Assembly: GCA_964016885.1 (NCBI GenBank) | Contig: OZ024762.1 | Span: forward strand, 2,728,001-2,792,000 | DNA: 64,000 bases | Source: Eledone cirrhosa | Taxonomy: Eukaryota | Direction of reading: 5' to 3' | Shown: positions 3,641 to 62,871 of the stretch, piece by piece | Layout: each line of letters begins with the position of its first letter | Position numbering within the stretch: position 1 is the stretch's first letter | Made by a program: the position numbers and the translations under genes | Notes under the pieces: generated by a model | Seen by the model: only the letters and a program-made list of their open reading frames with translations | Told to the model about the DNA's origin: nothing | Databases searched by the model: none

Positions 3641-3876
3641 ATGTTATTAAACAATATCTAATTCTACAGACAGTTCTGTTTCAATATATTGTGTATCATC
3701 ACTACAGACACTAACATTGCGTTGCCTTAGTTCAGTCAAAGAAGGTTTTGTTGTTCAGAAGAGAGAAAATCAATGATGCTGGTTGGTTGATGATGATGAT
3801 GTTGTTGTTGTTGTTGTTTAAATTAAAATCCTAAAGTTGAATTAAAATTATTCTTTTTTTTTAAATTTGCTTTCAG

Positions 3877-3979
3877 AATCTGTCAGACATGCCATGATGA
3901 TGCTTCTAAGTTTGTAAGGTTATTAGCAAAACCTGGATGTAAATATTTAGTGGTGGAGGACTTTGTATATTTTGTTCAG
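3877..3979 (+). CDS. PPP2R3A: PP2A regulatory subunit B'' (PR72/PR130/PR70-like), first exon visible in window (gene 5' part upstream)
   Basis: tttcag| ... CAG|gtacgc; translates (K)ICQTCHDDASKFVRLLAKPGCKYLVVEDFVYFVQ, matching B'' family motif CHDDAAKFVHLL..PGCNYLVQEDF. Confidence 0.92.
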
Positions 3980-4022
3980 GTACGCTGACTTCATTTGTCC
4001 ATCATCTCTCTCTCTCGCTCTC

Positions 4023-4113
<91 letters not shown>

Positions 4114-11229: not shown

Positions 11230-11953
<724 letters not shown>

Positions 11954-21849: not shown

Positions 21850-21900
<51 letters not shown>

Positions 21901-22409
21901 CTCATTTTATTATAGAAATGGTTTCTACAGGATTAGGACTGTTTCATTCATAAGAAATCATCTGGATTTTCCTGATGATTGCTTATGAATCACTACCACC
22001 GACCACAACAATAACATCAGTACCACCACCATCATCACCAACACCAACACCAACACCACCGCCACAATCACTATCACCAACACCACCACCTACACCACCA
22101 ACAGCACCATCATCACTACCACCTACACCACCACAATCACTACCACCATCATCATTACCACCATCACCACCACTACCACTACCACCAACACCACCAGTAT
22201 CACTACCTCCAACACCACCACCACCACCCTCCTCCCACCAACATCATACCCCCTAACACTACCCCCCACACCACTACCCGCTATCACCACCACCACCATC
22301 CTCACCATCACTAGGACCCCCCCCCCCTCCCCTCAACAAAGGTTAATTAATAAACATAACTTCAATTAAAAATCATTTCCTTATCTTGAAAGTGAAACTT
22401 TTCTTTAAT

Positions 22410-25649: not shown

Positions 25650-28600
25650 GGTATTAACTTGGATATTTACCATGCGACCCTCAGTTCCTACCTCACAATT
25701 TCCCTCCCCCCCACCCCCACACACCACCATAGTCTATTCGACCAATCAAACCTAGCATGCCATTTGCACTGCTGCTGCTGCTACTACCTGCCTAACTAAC
25801 TCTCTCCTCCTCTGGCGCATCCCAACACACCCTGCCATTACCCCACCACCACTGTCCTTCTAGCCCTCAATTTTCCCACCGTTATGGATGGATGAGCTGG
25901 GAATACACGAGCAACTCTGAATCAATAGATGAAATATGAATCTGCGAGCTACCAAGCACCCACGTGAAGCGCCAACCCAGAGACCCTCCCCTACGAGTGT
26001 CGACAAATGCCCAAAACTCCGAGTTGGTACCATCAATGTAGGCTCAATGAAAGGAAGAGCAGGAGAAATCGTAGAAATGCTAGAGCGAAAGGAAGTTGAT
26101 GTATGCTGTGTGCAAGAGACTAGATGGAGAGGAGGGTCTGCTAGAGTCCTTGTAGGAAAAAGCCAGTGCTACAAATTTTTCTGGGTGGGAAATGACGATG
26201 GGATGGGTGGTGTAGGTATACTATTAGCTGACAAGTGGGTAGATAAAGTAATCTCAGTGTACAGGGTAAATGCAAGAATCATTAAACTCAGACTAGTCCT
26301 GAATAAGACAATTACCACAATAATATCAGCTTACGCACCCCAATCGGGGCTGCCAGACGAACTTAAGGATAGGTTTTACGAGTCCCTAATACACACTACT
26401 GCTCTAACAGACGACAAGGACTTCCTAATCATTGCAGGAGATTTTAACGGACACGTAGGTAAACACTGCGACGGCTTCAATAGAGTACATGGAGGCCATG
26501 GAGTTGGCACAAGGAATGAGGAAGGATTCAGACTTCTAGAATTCTGCGACGCCAATGACATGTCGATATGTAACACAAACTTTAAAAAACCCGACAACCA
26601 CCTGATCACCTATAGATCAGGGGAGCACTCTAGTCAGTTAGATTTTATCCTCATCAGAGGACGTGACAGATGGACGGTCGTAAACACAAAAGCCTTCCCT
26701 AGTGAGGAATGTACATCCCAACATAGCTTAGTTGTCAGCGACCTCACGGTCAGAACTAGACGAGCCCTGAAACAGAGGCCAACCTGGAGAAGAAAGATCT
26801 GGAAGCTGAAAGTCCCCTCAACCAGTAACAGATTTAAAGATATTTTACTCAACGCCTACGACAGTAAAGAAGAACAGATAGAGACATTTAACGTAGAAGA
26901 GAACTGGGAGTTCCTAAAAAATAACTTACTAGAGGCGACGGATGAGGTTTGTGGCTGGAGTAAGACCTCAAGCAGGAGGAGAGTGACTTGGTGGTGGAAC
27001 AATAAGGTAGATGAAGCAGTCAAGGCCAAGAGACAGGCATGGAAAGAATGGAAGAACGGGGGGAGCAGGGTACATTACATAGAGACCAAGAGGGAAGCTA
27101 GGCGACAAGTATACTTAGCTAGGAGGGAAGCAGAGGATAGAAAATTCAAGCATGTTTTACAACGTGAGGACCAGAAACAGGAGGTATTCAAGATTGCGAG
27201 GCAGTGTGTCAGAGATAGTTGTGATGTCATTGGAGAGAAGTGTATCCGGAATGATAAAGGTGAGCTTGCCCTCACAAGTGCTGAGAAGAAAGATGCATGG
27301 AAGAGTCATTATGATAGATTACTAAATGAGGAGAATGCATGGGAAGAAGAGACCCTACCCCACGTAGACCCTATAGAGGGACCAGCAGTACAAGTCAGCG
27401 GCAGCGTAGTAAGTAAGGCAATCAGAGATATGAAGATAGGGAAGGCAACCGGTCCATCGGGTATAGCTGCCGAGATGCTGAAGGCATCTGGGTCTGTAGG
27501 TCACACTATAACCACACGTATCGTTAACCAGGTAATACTAGAGGGGGCCATACCAAAAGATTGGTGCAGTAGCATCATTGTCAACTGCTACAAAGGTAAA
27601 GGCGATGCACTAGATAGAGGAAACTATAGAGGTATAAAGTTGATGGACCAGGTCATGAAAGTAACAGAAAGAGTTATAGCACAGCTGATTAGGGACCGGG
27701 TGAATATAGACGAGATGCAATTTGGGTTTGTTCCAGGGAAAGGCACCACTGATGCGCTCTTCCTTGTGAGGCAATTACAGGAAAAGTACCTAGCTAAAAG
27801 TAAGCCACTCTACTTGGCATTTGTCGACCTTGAGAAAGCCTTTGACAGAGTTCCACGTGCAGTAATCTGGTGGGCTCTTAGAAAACTAGGAGTAGATGAA
27901 TGGCTTGTGAAAGCGGTACAAGCCATGTATAGGGGAGCAGTCAGCAAAGTTAGGATTGGCAATGAGTATAGCGAGGAATTTAGCGTACAGGTTGGGGTCC
28001 ACCAGGGCTCTGTTCTTAGCCCTCTCCTGTTCATCATAGTCCTGCAGGCAATAACGGAGGAGTTTAAGACCGGATGCCCATGGGAACTCCTGTATGCTGA
28101 TGACCTCGCACTCATAGCTGAATCTATGGTAGAACTAGAGAATAAATTCCAAACCTGGAAGCAGGGACTAGAGAGAAAGGGCCTCAAAGTCAACATGACA
28201 AAGACTAAGGTCCTTATAAGTAGACGAGAAAACAGAACCCAGATCCCCTCAGGGAAATGGCCTTGCTCAGTATGTAGGAAAGGTGTAGGTAGGAACTCCA
28301 TTCTTTGCCCCAAATGCAAACAATGGGTACACAAGAGATGTAGCGGGATCTCAGGAAGCTTAATTAAGAATGTAGGATTCACATGCAGCAGCTGTGCTGA
28401 AACAGCAAGCAAACAGCCACAGGAAACAAGTACCACCAATCTCTGGGAGGGCCCTGTAGAAACAGTAGACAGCTTCTGCTACCTAGGTGACCGAATTAGC
28501 AACGGAGGTGGGTGCTCAGAAAGTACAATAACTAGGGTAAGAACGGGATGGAAGAAGTTTAGGGAACTACTACCACTGCTAGCTGCAAAAGGCTTCTCCC

Positions 28601-29338
28601 TCAGAATGAAAGGCAGACTGTATGATGCGTGTATCCGAACAGCGATGTTGCATGGTAGTGAGACCTGGGCGCTGAAGGTGGAAGACTTACGTAGATTAGA
28701 GAGAAACGAAGCCTGCATGCTCCGATGGATGTGTAACAGTAATATACGTGAACGACAAAGCATAAATGAATTGAGAGAGAGACTGAGCATAAGAGGAATC
28801 AAATGCTGCGTGCAGGAGAGGCGGTTACGCTGGTATGGACATGTGATGCGTATGAAGGATGACAGCTGCATAAAAAGGTGCAGAGCACTAGAAGTTGATG
28901 GAAACCGCGGAGTGGGGAGACCCAAGATGACTTGGGATGAGGTGATAAAAGCCGACCTTACCCAACTACACCTCTCAAAGTCAATGACACACGACCGTGA
29001 CTTCTGGCGTCACGCAGTAATACAGGGTACCCGACCTCCCATGGGTACATGCTGAAGCATATAAACAATATGCCCCCCCCCCCCCCACCGCAAGGTGGTC
29101 GTGGAGGTGCCACGGCAAAAAAGCACCCAGCCCACACTGTAAAGTGGACGTGTAGGCGCCACGAAAAAGCACCCAGCACTCACTGTAAATGAGGTTGGTG
29201 TTAGGAAGGGCATCCAGCTGTAGAAATCAAGCCAGATCAGTTCCTGTATGAGCAAGGCATGGTCAGCCGACCAGACACTGCCCACAACAGGACAACCCGT
29301 CTAACCCATGCTAGCGTGGAAGAACGGACGTAAAACGG

Positions 29339-30025: not shown

Positions 30026-30084
<59 letters not shown>

Positions 30085-30091
<7 letters not shown>

Positions 30092-30420
30092 AAATAAAAT
30101 AAATAAGTCAAATGTTTAAAGGTTGGCTTCGTTTATTACTGCTATATATATTTCGGTGACAGCCATCTTTGGCTGTGACCTCTTCAGGCAGTCCGAATTA
30201 GTGTGGTATGTTCGGACTGCCTGAAGAGGTCACAGCCAAAGATGGCTGTCACCGAAATATATATAGCAGTAATAAACGAAGCCAAACTTTAAACATTTGA
30301 CTTATTTATTTTATTTTATTTTACATTACTCCGGAGTAACCAAACCAACCTGCGCACTTCGTCGAGTGCACCAGCCTGCATACTGAGGTGTTGGTATACA
30401 ACCAACATATACTCAAAATA
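30085..30420 (+). mobile_element. Foldback element with minimal type I hammerhead ribozyme (Penelope-like pLTR)
   Basis: 113-bp arms 30085-30197/30211-30323, one mismatch, 13-nt loop, plus one-sided 3' tail. Confidence 0.8.
30216..30270 (+). ncRNA. Minimal type I hammerhead ribozyme
   Basis: ACTGC-CTGAAGA-GGTCACAGCCA(AAGA)TGGCTGTCACC-GAAA-T(ATAT)A-TA^GCAGT, followed by AATAAA; mirrored copy on minus strand in left arm. Confidence 0.8.
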
Positions 30421-32999
30421 TATACAATATATTAATAAATGGAAACTATAATTATAAAACCATAATTATTTTATATATATTTCAAGGGTGATCAAGGTAA
30501 ATTATGGTGCGCTTTCATCAGATAAAATACAGATTTGTTTTATAAATAAATATTGACATACCCGGAAAAAAGACAACCTCAACGTTGAGGTTGCCTCTTT
30601 ATATATAGTTATATATAGTTTCCACTAACTGTTGAGTGCTTTATATCAGTTATAAAAATGTTTATCATAACAAATTAAATATAACCGCTGCATATATATA
30701 TATATATATATATATAAATCAGGAGTGAATCAATTTGAAACTAAGACCATTACTCAACAGAGTACTCGATACTTGGAGTAGTAGAGTATGGTTATATTAT
30801 AAAGAGTACATAGCTCCAAGTAGAACCTTTATGTCCCTCACCTCCTTTCTATCATACTCACCCTATCCTTCTCTAGGAGAAATCAACTGTGTTCACACCT
30901 GAAGAGGAGATTGACTCTGCCAGGTTTTAAAACTTCCCAAGACACACTGTATGTCACTAAGGTGCCTGTACAACCCCACCATGAGTTATGGCTGCACACA
31001 CACATATACATACACATACATACATATAAGTATGACCAAGACCATATATGCCTAAACTAGAATGGAAAATTTAAACCACACATCTTTCAAAACCATGCCT
31101 CTGCCCTCTCAGACAAACAATAACCATTTATCATATCAATCACCAACACTAAAAATATAGTCATTTCTATGGCATGGCCTGGCCCTTTGTGCCAGTTTTC
31201 TACAGCTAGAAGCCATTCCTATCACCAACCACTTGAACACCATCTACAGAAGTTACTCCCAACACATGTTGGTGTACATCTGGCACCATCTATACCAAGG
31301 CAGTTTTGGTAGACAATACTATTAGAAACTCCTGTTTCACATCCTCCACACATGTGATTGTACATCTAGCATCACCCATGCGCCAATTTCTTTACACTTT
31401 GCAATTGATCATCGCTGTTTTTATCTCAAAGTGGGGCACAAAGATATTTGAGATGTTGAGGTGGGACATGGGGCACAAAAGGTTCGAAACCACTGCTCTA
31501 CAGGGACCACATTCACATGATATACAAGTGTCTTTCTTAGACTCCCACCAGCAGAGATATGATTCTGTTATTACATCAGTTATATTACAGCACAGCAACC
31601 ATATTTTGTGAACAAGTGTAACTTACTTTCATAATATTTCTATTGACTAGTTTGTGTGAAGGCTTACTGCGATGGAACTGTTAACATATGCTATGTATCA
31701 AAGAGAGCTGGTGGGTATATTGGCTGCCATGTTTGGAAGGGGTGGGTTGTTGCTACACCAGTATTTCCATATTTCTGTTTTTCATGTCATATATATCGAT
31801 ATTATGAGGAATATTGTGGTTTTTCTTTGTATTGCCTCCATTTCTAGCATAACATCGCAATAATAAGCAACACTAGTGAAGGGCGCTTTGTCTGAAGATT
31901 TATATATATGTAGGTGTGTAAATATATATACACAAACACAAACGTGTGTGTGTATATACATTTCTATACATGCTACGTGTATAAATTTGTCAAAACAGAT
32001 TGAGATGCAGATTAGTGTGACTGTTTGTTATATATATATATATATATATATATATAACAGTCACACTATATATATATATATATATAACAGTCACACTATA
32101 TATATATATATATTATATATATATATACACACAGCTATGGTATGTATATATTTATGTAATTCTGAATATTATTCAGAATATTACATGGATACTACCACCA
32201 CTACTACCACCAACACCACCACCAACACTACCACCACCACCAACACCACTACTACCACCACCACCACCAACACCACTACTACCACCACCAACACCACCAC
32301 CACCACTACCACCACCACCACTACTACCACCACCACTACCACCACCACCACCACCACCAACACCACCACCACCAACACCACCACCACCATCACCACCACC
32401 ACCACCACCACTTTACCAAAATCTCTGACAAAAGGAATCCAGAGACATCAGATCTGACATCAAGCCAATTGGGAGGTGCCCTATGTGGGGCTGTGGTCAG
32501 CTCTCTGTCTCCCTGTGTGTGTATGGGGGGTGGCTGGAGGAGACTGGTACATGTGTGGAGCTGTGGACGTGTGTGTTTTATATTCACATACACACTGGGG
32601 CATATATATACATAGTTACATCTCTATATTTATATATATATTATATATTTATATATATTATATATATTTATATAATTATATATTATATTTATATATATAT
32701 TATATATTTATATATATTATATATGTATATATATTTTATATATATTATATATATATTATATATTTATTTTATATTATATATTTATATATATTATATATTT
32801 ATATATATCTCTATCTATATATATATATATATTATATATTATATATTTTTATATATATATATATTTATATTTATATATATATCTATCTATATATTATATA
32901 TATATTATATATTTTTATATATTATATATTTATATATATATATCTGTCTATATATATTATATATATTTATATATATATATCTATACCTATCTATATATT

Positions 33000-33670: not shown

Positions 33671-34896
33671 GACTGCTTATTCAATATATTCTCACTCCAC
33701 CACCTGAGGACCCCAGAGTTTTAAGGGAGTTATCTCTGCAACACTAATACAGAAACATTGAGAATCCCGTAAAACCACAAACACACCATACACACACATA
33801 CATACACACATATATATATACATACACATACACAGATACACCACACACCACACACCACACCACACATACACATCACATACACACACCACACACCACACTA
33901 CACCACACCACACCACACCACACCACCACACATGGAATGATTTACAGCCTGCAATTGTTCCATTTGATAAAACTCTCTCAATATTATTATTATTATTACT
34001 GGTTTAATCTTTTGTTAAAATATCATTATCAGATTAATTTTTATTAAATTAATTATTTTTTTCTTTCTATCTTTTTCTTACTTTCAGTTTATCTCCATTT
34101 TGACACACCCACCCCACCTACTCCTTCCCCCACCCCACCTACCCGTTCCTCTACCCCCACCTACCACCTCCCCACCCCACCTACCCCTTCCTCCCAACCT
34201 ACCACTTCCCCCACCCAATCACCCACTCATATATCTACTCTTCCACCCTAACCACCCCTCCAGTCTTCCAACCACCCCCTTTCACCTCTCCACCCCACCC
34301 ACTTATCTACCACCCACCGCCCTCTCCATCCCCCACCCTCTCCACCTACCCCTCCCAACTAAACCTGAAACAGTTATTAATTAAATTGATTTATTTATTC
34401 TCAATGTCGCGAATTATTGACCAGACAACAACAACAATTACAACAATAATAACTACAACAACAACAAAGAAAAATCTAAAATTTAAAAACAAATAAAAGA
34501 CAAAAGAAAAACTGTGGCTAAATTGATGAGATTAGAATGTTTGTTGTTTCTTTCTTTGTTTTTTAGAGGTGGGGGAGGGGATTATGGATGGGTGGAGGTG
34601 GAGGTGGTGGTGGGAGATGACGAGGGGGGAGACGGGGTGGTTATTATTTTTATTTATACCTTTGTTGTTGCTGTTGTTGTTTTAAAGTTGAGTTTACTGG
34701 AAAAATTAAATTTTCTTTGATGTTGTTGTTGTTTTGGCGGTAGGGGGTGTGTGTGTCTTTGAAGATATGTGGCTGAATATTCCTGACACATCTAAAGCTG
34801 CTATGGTTGGTGTATACAATGGCATGTATGTATGTGTATATATATGAGTGTGATTGTATGTGTATATATATATATATATATATGTGTGTGTATATA

Positions 34897-35286
34897 GTGG
34901 TAGCTATGGTGCTTCCATAGGCGGTATGCCAACATTAGCACTCGATATTCATCAGAGTAGAGTGTAGATATTATCAAGAAAACGAAAAATCAGTGATGCA
35001 TCTGGACTTTATTTTGTGTTACAAATGTTTCACCGTCATGTAGCTCGAGTCATGGTCCTTGTATGGATCTGGCTGATTCTACTTCTGCCGGTTCTTTCAG
35101 ACACGGCTGTTATGTCCGGAGCAAATTTTATCCGGACATAACAGCCGTGTCTGAAAGAACCCACAGAAGTAGAATCAGCCAGATCCATACAAGGACCATG
35201 ACTCGAGCTACATGACGGTGAAACATTTGTAACACAAAATAAACCAAGTCCAGATGCATCACTGATTTTTCGTTTTCTTTATAATA
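34897..35286 (-). mobile_element. Foldback element with hammerhead-like core (Penelope-like pLTR)
   Basis: About 150-bp arms 34969-35120/35131-35286, 10-nt loop; GTGT-CTGAAAGA-ACC(G)...(C)GGT-GAAA-C(ATTT)G-TA^ACAC then AATAAA. Confidence 0.65.
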
Positions 35287-38615: not shown

Positions 38616-39409
38616 GGAGAAGGCAACTCAGGAAACAGAGACACGCGGTGAAAAGTTTTGGAGTGATCGTATCTCCTTGCTTCACTCCCTTCTCGACCGG
38701 CACTCGTACGGGTGATGACAGCAGAGCTGTGTCGGTGGTGCATTCCGTACCCGCCTCCCTGAGTAGTTGAACGTATTGAGCCTCGACTCCTTGCCTCTGC
38801 AGCGAGTTCAGCACTGCGTTGATTTCGACGCTGTCGAAGGCCTTCTCGTATTCTACGAAAGCGACGCAAAGAGGCATCTTGTACTCTTTTACTCTTTCAA
38901 TGGCATAAGGGATGTGCTCAAGGGGTGGCTGGACAAGACCACCCGCGCCAACCTCTTCAATAGCACAGTTTTACCTGCAATGTTATATGGCAGTGAAATT
39001 TGGGCTACAACGAAGAGAGAAGAGCAGAGGCTGGTAACGGCTCAAAGAGCCATGGAGAGATCAATGCTAGGAATCTCGTTGAGAGAGCACATCAGGAGCG
39101 AAGTCATCAGACAGAAGTCCGGCGTGAGGGACGTCATCATGGAATATATGCGCAGCAAGTTCAGATGGGCTGGACACGTCGCCCGGTTCACCGATAATCG
39201 GTGGACCCGCGCAGTTGCCGAGTGGTACCCGCGCGAGCGGAAACGGCCACTCGGAAGGCGTCCACGAGGGTGGATTTATCATTTTAAGAATATGATTGGA
39301 ACTACATAGATGAGGAAAGCACGATCCAGAGAGGAATGGACGGCGTGCTGTGACCAGTGGCGCCGAATGGACGCCCGACAGACTGGTCGGTCAAGGTGAT
39401 CAAGGTGAT
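38616..39409 (+). mobile_element. 5'-truncated, 5'-inverted RTE-1-like LINE fragment
   Basis: Minus-strand RT piece ([20 protein letters not shown]...[17 protein letters not shown]) joined at about 38890 to plus-strand C-terminus ([16 protein letters not shown]...FRWAGHVAR...RPLGRRP) ending (CAAGGTGAT)2. Confidence 0.88.
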
Positions 39410-39449
39410 ATATATGTATGTATATATATATATATATATATATATACGT

Positions 39450-46681: not shown

Positions 46682-46685
<4 letters not shown>

Positions 46686-46874
46686 TTAATATAGATGAGA
46701 TTCTACAGGACTAGAACTGTTTCATTCCTTAGAAATCATCAGGATTCCTGATGATTTCTAAGGAATGAAACAGTTCTAGTCCTGTAGAATCTCATCTATA
46801 TTAAAACTTTTATACTCTGCAATGTATTGAGTACCTTACTTACTGTGGTTACCTCCGATTCAACCCGGAATAAC

Positions 46875-46878
<4 letters not shown>
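46682..46878 (+). mobile_element. Perfect 63-bp-arm palindrome with CTGATGA...GAAAC core, Penelope-like
   Basis: Arms 46682-46744/46746-46808 exactly complementary, ATTAAA, one-sided tail, flanked by (TA)n; related degenerate copy at 21905-21990. Confidence 0.6.
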
Positions 46879-61415: not shown

Positions 61416-61460
61416 AAGGGTTAAAAAGGATCAAAGGTAAAAGAGTTGTTTATTTCTTAC

Positions 61461-61625
61461 CACTTCGAGATGTTGTAAGACACCGTATTTCATCGCTTCC
61501 ATCGTTGCAATGAAGAGTTTTATCACATCGCTCAAACACTGGTATACAATGTATCATACTGCTACACATAAAAATACTTTTGTTTTCTTTATTACATACA
61601 CTGATGTCAAAATTCATGGCAATTT
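61461..61625 (-). CDS. LDL-receptor class A repeat exon of same gene
   Basis: ttccag|...G|gtaaga; CNKENKSIFMCSSMIHCIPVFERCDKTLHCNDGSDEIRC (6 Cys, D.SDE); phase 1-1. Confidence 0.92.
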
Positions 61626-61704
61626 CTGGAAAATGAGAGAAATATTTATCAACAATAAACAAACAATATTTTTACATTAGTTTCAATTACACAGCGAAGC
61701 TTAT

Positions 61705-62270
61705 GATTTAAACTGTAATGTCTGTTTTCCACGATTGCATATGTTAGACGGGCTGTCACATACTGATGTTTGACTGGCTGTCACATACTGATGTTTGACT
61801 GGCCAGGTGACCATGTCTTGCTCGTACACTCCATTTTTTTACTTTATTTCTATAGCTGGATGTCCTTCCTAACACCAACCTCTTTACAGCATGTACAGAG
61901 TGGACTGGGTACCTTTTTATCATGGTACCAGCACTGCTACTTTACAGAGTGAACTGGGTATTTTTTGTCATGGTACCAGCACTACCACCTTAAAGGGTGG
62001 ACATGGTGTATTTCGTCATGGCACCAGCACTACCACCTTACAGGGTGGACTGGGTGTATTTCGTCTTGGCACCAGAACTACCACCTTACAGGGTGGACTG
62101 GGTGTATTTCGTCTTGGCACCAACACTACCCCCTTACAGGGTGGACTGGGTGTATTTCGTCTTGGCACCAACACTACCCCCTTACAGGGTGGACTGGGTG
62201 TATTTCGTCTTGGCTCCAACACTACCCCCTTACAGGGTGGACTGGGTGTATTTCGTCATGGCACCAACAC
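61705..62270 (-). repeat. RTE/SINE 3' tail with 48-bp minisatellite expansion
   Basis: TTTCTATAGCTGGATGTCCTTCCTAACACCAACC followed by about 8 copies of GGGTGGACTGGGTGTATTTCGTCTTGGCACCAACACTACCCCCTTACA. Confidence 0.8.
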
Positions 62271-62311
62271 TATATTCTGAAAACTATGATATATTTAAAT
62301 TGTGAACTTAC

Positions 62312-62488
62312 GAGGACAAACTGCATTATTTTCACAGACTTTTGTCTCAGATGATGGCCCTTCACAGTCTTTCCCTTCATAGCTAGGGTACGGGGCTGAG
62401 CAGAGTCTCACTCGCCTCTGTGTCCCCTCTGGACCACAGATCCTGTTACATACTGACCAGCCACTCCATAATGTCCAGTTTCCATCAA
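62312..62488 (-). CDS. Thrombospondin type-1 repeat exon of a minus-strand secreted/surface protein (5' exons lie beyond window)
   Basis: ttgacag|...C|gtaagt; DGNWTLWSGWSVCNRICGPEGTQRRVRLCSAPYPSYEGKDCEGPSSETKVCENNAVCP (WxxWxxW, RxRxC, 6 Cys); phase 1-1. Confidence 0.93.
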
Positions 62489-62871
62489 CTGTCAAATAAA
62501 ACAAAACACATTATTGCAAGGATCACTTCAACAACAACAGCAGCAATAATAAGTACAACAGCAGCAGCAGCAACAACAACAACAGCAGCAATAAGTACAA
62601 AAGCAACAACAACAACAACAGCAGCAGCAATAATAAGTACAAAAGCAGCAACAACAACAACAACACCTACAATAAATCTTCAGCATAAAATCTGTTGTGT
62701 TCTTAGCCAACTAAACTATCATCATCATCATTGCTGGTTCTATATGGTATTAAGGGTGGAGAGAACTGTCTGTCTGTCTGTCTGTCTGTCAGTCCATCTG
62801 TCTGTCTGTCTGTCAGTCCATCTGTCTGTCTGTCTGTCTGTCAGTCAACACAACCTGTTCCAGGAATTGAA

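Follow-up and report, generated by a model that had tools for sequence, protein, structure and literature searches.

Insertions of EN+ Penelope-like elements (PLEs; Penelope/Poseidon, Neptune and Hydra) are described as often containing an inverted, 5'-truncated copy, a tail at one end and a bias towards (TA)n targets (PMC8557442; PMC3846280), and self-priming has been proposed as the origin of their head-to-head palindromes (PMC3846280). Minimal hammerhead ribozymes are present in the pLTRs of PLEs (Cervera and De la Pena, 2014; PMC4209133); in that account the monomer is inactive and the activity of the dimer is low, and pairs of hammerheads on opposite strands, 100-700 bp apart, are attributed to truncated PLEs. 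A PLE protein was reported to cut and extend both strands at AT-rich DNA and to start reverse transcription at two internal sites, the stretch between them defining the tail, while the ribozyme was protein-assisted and dispensable for insertion (PMC11167929). Recently active Penelope families are listed in an octopus (PMC13282606). Non-LTR retrozymes, which are defined by direct tandem units with canonical hammerheads in arrays (PMC7229834), have been proposed to be non-autonomous PLE derivatives (bioRxiv 10.64898/2026.07.22.740005).

The locus described here belongs to a window of 64,000 nucleotides from Eledone cirrhosa (contig OZ024762.1, positions 2,728,001 to 2,792,000), a microsatellite-rich animal sequence of which 46% was masked by TRF. 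The window carries exons of a PP2A B'' regulatory subunit on the plus strand (5613 to about 10797), which were located by motifs and the first of which was confirmed against the PDB. A convergent gene contributes LDLa and TSP1 exons on the minus strand (61453-62510). The studied element is an inverted repeat with two arms of 113 bp (30085-30197 and 30211-30323), a single mismatch between them (G30122/A30286) and a 13-nt loop (30198-30210), exactly as an initial annotation of this DNA had proposed. That annotation also reported a (TA)n tract beside the repeat and a short tail on one side only. The tract is present, yet (TA)n remnants occur on both sides of the element; as to a target-site duplication, both flanks consist of TA repeats. 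The tail is indeed one-sided, but it is not short, since it runs for about 95 nt (30324 to 30418). The parts of the locus are the following.

30027..30084, no strand: left target remnant, (CA)n then (TA)n (sequence)
30085..30197, minus strand: left arm, an inverted copy without tail, 113 bp with 1 mismatch relative to the right arm
30138..30192, minus strand: type I hammerhead, minus copy, predicted cut after 30143 (descriptor scan, fold)
30198..30210, minus strand: unpaired loop of 13 nt, which is probably native to the 5' part of the minus copy (X7 and X4 contigs)
30211..30323, plus strand: right arm, the plus copy, beginning 10 nt upstream of the core (arm and core comparison)
30216..30270, plus strand: type I hammerhead, plus copy, predicted cut after 30265 (descriptor, fold, shuffles)
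30271..30276, plus strand: AATAAA within an AU-rich 3' flank (sequence)
30324..30418, plus strand: one-sided tail of about 95 nt with small hairpins (family reads and contigs, fold)
30362..30369, plus strand: 8-mer box T.GAGT.C, 57 nt from the 3' end, common to four foldback tails (found post hoc)
30419..30424, no strand: right target remnant TATATA, between the element and its older neighbour FB4 (loose ends at 30418 and 30424, (TA)n consensus)
30425..30692, no strand: FB4, an adjoining older foldback of another family (opposite-strand joints in other copies)

All the type I hammerhead elements that had been claimed were located in order on the plus strand. Stem I (30216-30220/30266-30270) encloses the core CTGAAGA (30221-30227), a stem II of 11 columns, 10 of them paired (30228-30238/30243-30253, with a C-C mismatch at 30231/30250 and a 4-nt loop), GAAA (30254-30257), a stem III reduced to T30258-A30263 around ATAT, and the cleavage triplet ATA (30263-30265); CUGANGA, GAAA and NUH are present in order together with helices I and II. 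The copy announced on the other strand was found by the descriptor and runs from 30192 to 30138. The segment 30257-30264 is a perfect palindrome that makes stem III palindromic (positions 15.2-16.2 and loop 3), with a dimer being possible. The motif contains a single ATG, which opens just 16 codons, and the only match of the peptide read through the hammerhead, to a repeat-rich BTB protein, was rejected as spurious. An AU-rich 3' flank belongs to the published consensus (PMC4209133), so the AATAAA is not necessarily a poly(A) signal.

The palindromic-helix-III variant of the PLE minimal hammerhead (PMC4209133) shares with the element its core, the 5-bp helix I, the long helix II, the G10.1-C11.1 pair, the palindromic helix III, the AU-rich 3' flank and the occurrence as opposite-strand pairs. 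Unlike the consensus given there, the element lacks the extra unpaired base between positions 9 and 10.1, G30228 pairing directly; one of the published helix III variants, from a shrimp, lacks this base as well. Its helix II also differs from that of the published variant by an inner C-C mismatch and by a first pair that is G-U in about 55% of the family reads.

A hammerhead search, which the initial annotation had suggested, was positive with a descriptor and negative with Rfam. A strict type I descriptor had two matches in the window and none in 200 block-wise dinucleotide shuffles, so the hammerhead pair is not due to chance; a looser one also had two matches in the window, and one match in each of 2 of the 200 shuffles. 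The Rfam covariance models, at E values of up to 10, gave 29 and 2 matches, with no hammerhead family among them; their matches to the hairpin were of the miRNA type only, all of them below the gathering score.

The isolated 65-nt motif folds with stems I and II (-18.7 kcal/mol, z -3.15). Closing stem III in the monomer is predicted to cost 2.7 kcal/mol, and for two copies together a double hammerhead is predicted at -44.6 kcal/mol, compared with 2 x -18.7 kcal/mol. Stem probabilities were computed at equilibrium for the plus strand, the minus strand following by symmetry. The predicted pairing probabilities of stems I and II were 0.77 and 0.94 for the motif alone, 0.22-0.35 and 0.89-0.93 in the presence of arm, loop and tail, and 0.00 for both stems in all three contexts that included left-arm sequence, one of which ended at the ribozyme end. 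The whole read-through hairpin has a predicted energy of -212.5 kcal/mol. As the arms lie head to head, transcription of either strand produces the antisense arm first, and the two hammerheads, being on opposite strands, cannot dimerise within one transcript. On these folding predictions, RNA crossing both arms is expected to form a long hairpin and not a switch; at this locus the mirror copy most likely silences the hammerhead, which would be inactive in vivo. The earlier suggestion that read-through RNA could either cleave itself or be locked in a hairpin did not hold, both because stems I and II were lost in every left-arm context and because ribozymes on opposite strands cannot pair up.

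Sequences related to the element were surveyed by comparing 4 of the 15 listed runs with 30198-30690, 30295-30333 being skipped as a repeat. Most counts come from X13, a raw RAD run, in which read depths are not copy numbers and reads are unphased. The element belongs to a family that is abundant, dispersed and rich in variants; matching contigs also come from organisms A, B and D, in two studies (P1 and P2). Depth in X13 was about 3,800-4,100 over the hammerhead and about 1,200-1,640 over the tail, that is, about a third to 0.4 of the hammerhead value, which indicates that the tail is optional. Family reads and contigs cover the tail from 30334 to 30424 and finish in (TA)n; 53 X1 contigs place the end of the family at 30418-30424, just before (TA)n, which sets the length of the tail at about 95 nt.

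At the 5' edge, 1,055 and 972 X13 reads were loose before 30211 and 30216, respectively (agreement 0.39 and 0.48). Many family copies are solo arms whose flank is heterogeneous within a few bases upstream, and truncation and several subfamilies both fit; the 5'-edge reads do not separate them because the reference stops being native at 30211. Upstream of 30211, one X7 contig has 11 letters that match the loop in reverse complement, and a similar stretch precedes 30216 in X4 and X7 contigs. On this evidence the loop is probably extra native 5' sequence of the minus copy, the plus copy being truncated 13 nt further. The locus is best read as a head-to-head junction of two 5'-truncated copies, which start 23 nt (minus) and 10 nt (plus) before the core.

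At 30287 the two arms agree in having C, whereas T is found in 412 of 418 X13 reads. The shared C fits a single template, and a difference between subfamilies or species would explain it equally. C30253, at a CpG site, is T in 2,239 of 4,093 X13 reads (about 55%), which converts the first pair of stem II from G-C to G-U; no compensatory change was found among the substitutions listed (82 further ones apart). A rare insertion behind 30269 (134 of 3,887 X13 reads) was, with C30253T, the only variant inside the motif among those listed.

The layout of the element is not rare, similar elements being found every few kb. Three further foldbacks with the same layout and unrelated sequence occur within 17 kb: FB4, listed above, and FB2 and FB3, which were revealed by self-comparison of the window and are given here with a relative of the latter.

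34895-35279: FB2, arms 34976-35120 and 35131-35279 (about 145 bp), 10-nt loop, tail on the left, TA flanks
46682-46878: FB3, perfect 63-bp arms (46682-46808), 1-nt centre, 70-nt tail on the right, TA on both sides
21896-21992: decayed relative of FB3 with the same centre position (21905-21990 in the window self-comparison)

FB4, directly to the right of the studied element, is an older member of a very abundant family. It has a central palindrome (30567-30600), a right arm that is mostly lost, a tail at 30626-30692 and, on the minus strand near 30525-30460, a decayed hammerhead that shares the GAAA-TATATATA segment; in other copies of FB4, left arm and tail are found joined on opposite strands (30420-30437 to 30621-30635). 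The hammerhead-like motif of FB2 has one extra core base and a long stem II enclosing about 55 nt, and that of FB3, with a 3-bp stem III, was missed by the descriptor and parsed by hand. All four foldbacks lie between (TA)n tracts, with their hammerhead-like motifs facing outward. The shorter copy begins 10, 20 and 3 nt upstream of the core in the studied element, FB2 and FB3, respectively; the centre of FB4, about 60 nt from the core, is a poor fit to such a tight 5'-start rule. The centres differ in length (13, 10 and 1 nt), the arms of the other three foldbacks show from zero to several differences, and overall similarity among the four units was at shuffle level in all six pairs.

The tails of the studied element, FB2, FB3 and FB4 measure 95, 81, 70 and 67 nt (the last three set by eye), and T.GAGT.C, always in the same orientation, is found 57, 51, 52 and 61 nt from their respective ends. 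This 8-mer was found post hoc: equal sharing of an 8-mer occurred in 33 of 1,000 shuffles, in 4 of those with three or more G/C. The whole window has 6 matches to T.GAGT.C, for 6.7 expected, of which four are in the tails and a fifth is in a stretch that resembles tails of the other foldbacks. That stretch (30715-30830, minus strand) is similar to the tails of FB2 and FB3 and is probably a fifth remnant. The shared box is a weakly supported lead, not a result. Tails of this length and a shared box were not seen in the extracts of open-access literature consulted, in searches that were not aimed at the box. Details that are possibly new are the long tails, the shared 8-mer, inversion points a short distance 5' of the core and, as a hint, sources arranged in tandem from tail to hammerhead.

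We consider it probable that the element is a heavily 5'-truncated insertion of the hammerhead end (pLTR and tail) of a canonical EN+ PLE, or of a deletion derivative of such a PLE. Membership of the PLEs is proposed here from anatomy. The general layout and the opposite-strand hammerhead pair are already known from PLE insertions, and the element resembles those of EN+ PLEs (PMC3846280; PMC8557442) by its head-to-head inverted copy, its tail at one end, its hammerhead in a terminal repeat and its (TA)n target; as in those insertions, no target duplication is discernible, the flanks here both being TA repeats. It differs from them in its longer tail and in being without any ORF remnant. Neptune or Hydra would fit both the hammerhead and the microsatellite target, whereas Naiads are described as being without canonical hammerheads. 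The initial annotation had called on minimal hammerheads of PLEs, cleavage as dimers and inverted pLTR copies; an inverted copy, a one-sided tail and a hammerhead of the dimer type are supported here, and the layout agrees with published PLE insertions. Its further claim, a young and very short PLE-derived insertion, is upheld for a short PLE-type insertion by the layout and the dispersed family; for 'young', the evidence is the one difference in 113 positions between the arms.

Under the preferred reading, a PLE RT/GIY-YIG protein would nick a (TA)n tract, and reverse transcription would begin internally at two places in a single RNA, at the end of the tail (about 30418) and at that of the arm (30323). 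The two cDNAs would come to a halt 10 and 23 nt before the core, immediately 5' of the ribozyme, and would then be joined head to head, unless the second arm was made by fold-back priming; a palindrome tailed on one side only would result. The hammerhead would be a passenger, which in the parent probably cuts as a dimer or with the help of protein. PAc, the Poseidon of Anolis (PMC11167929), likewise has two 3' ends, an AT-rich target and an AC-rich hairpin stretch in the tail region. It differs in that its ORF starts at stem II, where the ATG of the element opens only the short frame mentioned above, and in that the distance between the two 3' ends is longer in the element.

Several observations count against a truncated PLE end. 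None of the 131 frames scanned in the window gave a GIY-YIG match, and the tail of about 95 nt compares with published tails of 30-40 nt. The extra base between positions 9 and 10.1 is missing, and C30253T weakens the first pair of stem II. In addition, the sequence upstream of the hammerhead resembles the tail end of another family, which a plain pLTR does not predict.

The last observation bears on a second PLE-dependent reading, which is less likely yet the only serious alternative. Here the source would be an ORF-less, retrozyme-like unit of about 135-230 nt, made of hammerhead, arm and long tail and present in head-to-tail arrays or as circular RNA, which PLE proteins would copy in trans; these proteins would recognise the box near the 3' end, and copies would start at the ribozyme, taken as the unit boundary. 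Three X13 reads run from an FB4-type tail (30657) through 29 letters into the studied hammerhead (30216), and the 29-letter joint opens with the 11-mer that follows 30657 in 7,736 reads. Single X4 and X7 contigs show, by eye, a closely similar stretch upstream of 30216, the approximately 2,000 X13 reads described above are heterogeneous just upstream of 30211-30216, and the 67-95-nt tails share T.GAGT.C 51-61 nt from their end. The proposed descent of retrozymes from PLEs points the same way, and the described retrozymes (PMC7229834; bioRxiv 10.64898/2026.07.22.740005) are, like the element, short, non-coding, PLE-related and dispersed as monomers, with a type I hammerhead. They consist, however, of direct tandem units and have canonical hammerheads in tandem arrays, whereas the copies are head to head and the ribozyme is of the dimer type at this locus. 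A direct tandem unit with hammerhead is absent from the window, and the upstream sequence of the element does not occur in its own tail, which argues against a simple self-tandem. The joint was seen in three reads only, and PLEs are reported to insert beside older copies (PMC6765202). It is rather doubtful that the genome holds a whole superfamily of ORF-less 135-230-nt units of unrelated sequence with a tail-to-hammerhead tandem or circular RNA source, in which the box T.GAGT.C would be the docking signal of the PLE RT/endonuclease and which would enter (TA)n either solo or as head-to-head pairs starting at the unit boundary. If this were true, PLEs would have a counterpart of SINEs whose recognition box is defined, and the start of copies at the hammerhead edge would be explained. 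That one or the other of the two PLE-dependent readings is correct appears highly probable.

Explanations without a PLE fare much less well. A MITE or foldback DNA transposon with long terminal inverted repeats and an accidental hammerhead would account for the long near-perfect arms, the TA flanks and the lack of an ORF, and is nevertheless very unlikely: the tail, though part of the family, is found beyond the repeat, at one of its sides, about 2,000 reads join the 5' edge of the arm to unrelated sequence instead of a mirror arm, solo arms are common, the centres vary in length and all four hammerhead-like motifs face outward. Slightly less probable still is a regulatory switch or small-RNA hairpin kept by the host on a read-through transcript. 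Its location between the PP2A B'' exons (plus) and the TSP1/LDLa exons (minus) makes read-through possible and the hairpin is very stable, but the element is one of many copies, the nearest exon found is 19 kb away, the ribozyme does not pair in the presence of the left arm, and the miRNA matches are far below the Rfam gathering scores. Least probable of all is that the inversion arose during amplification or assembly. Palindromes are a known artefact of some libraries, and no read or contig shown from the four runs spans the loop of the locus. Yet the mirror stops exactly at the edge of the element and does not enter the unique flank, there is one base difference between the arms, the loop agrees with native sequence from upstream, and the three other foldbacks have the same element-bounded layout.

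This single locus matters little, its layout and its opposite-strand hammerhead pair being published features of PLE insertions. Its value would be that of a footprint of PLE integration, a process that is still poorly understood. Four unrelated families within 17 kb have kept the ribozyme portion (decayed in FB4) and two defined 3' ends, and maybe share a tail box. If the fixed 5' edge and the box were found genome-wide, they would provide a concrete cis-signal and a test of the role of the hammerhead in PLE mobility.

In a scan of 131 frames of the window (23 plus 108), there was no GIY-YIG match and two RT matches, an APE-RT ORF and a LINE-like fragment. A pattern scan of viral contigs gave no match, and one of metagenome contigs gave eight, none of which had a convincing stem I by eye; apart from a single match of 22 nt to FB4, they showed no similarity to the element. 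A sigma-70 scan was at chance level and is not relevant to this genome.

The APE-RT ORF lies at 25933-29055 on the plus strand, 1 kb upstream of the element. It is an uninterrupted LINE ORF of 1040 aa that encodes an APE endonuclease and an RT followed by a PHD finger, has a (GAT)n end and looks intact. It was considered as a parent and rejected, being an APE-RT LINE with a PHD insert and not a PLE. A LINE fragment at 38640-39410 has a 5' inversion, with the RT part on the minus strand and the 3' part on the plus strand. Two inverted copies of a common 175-bp interspersed repeat, 97 nt apart, were observed at 11336-11945, roughly 1 kb past the last of the PP2A B'' exons detected.
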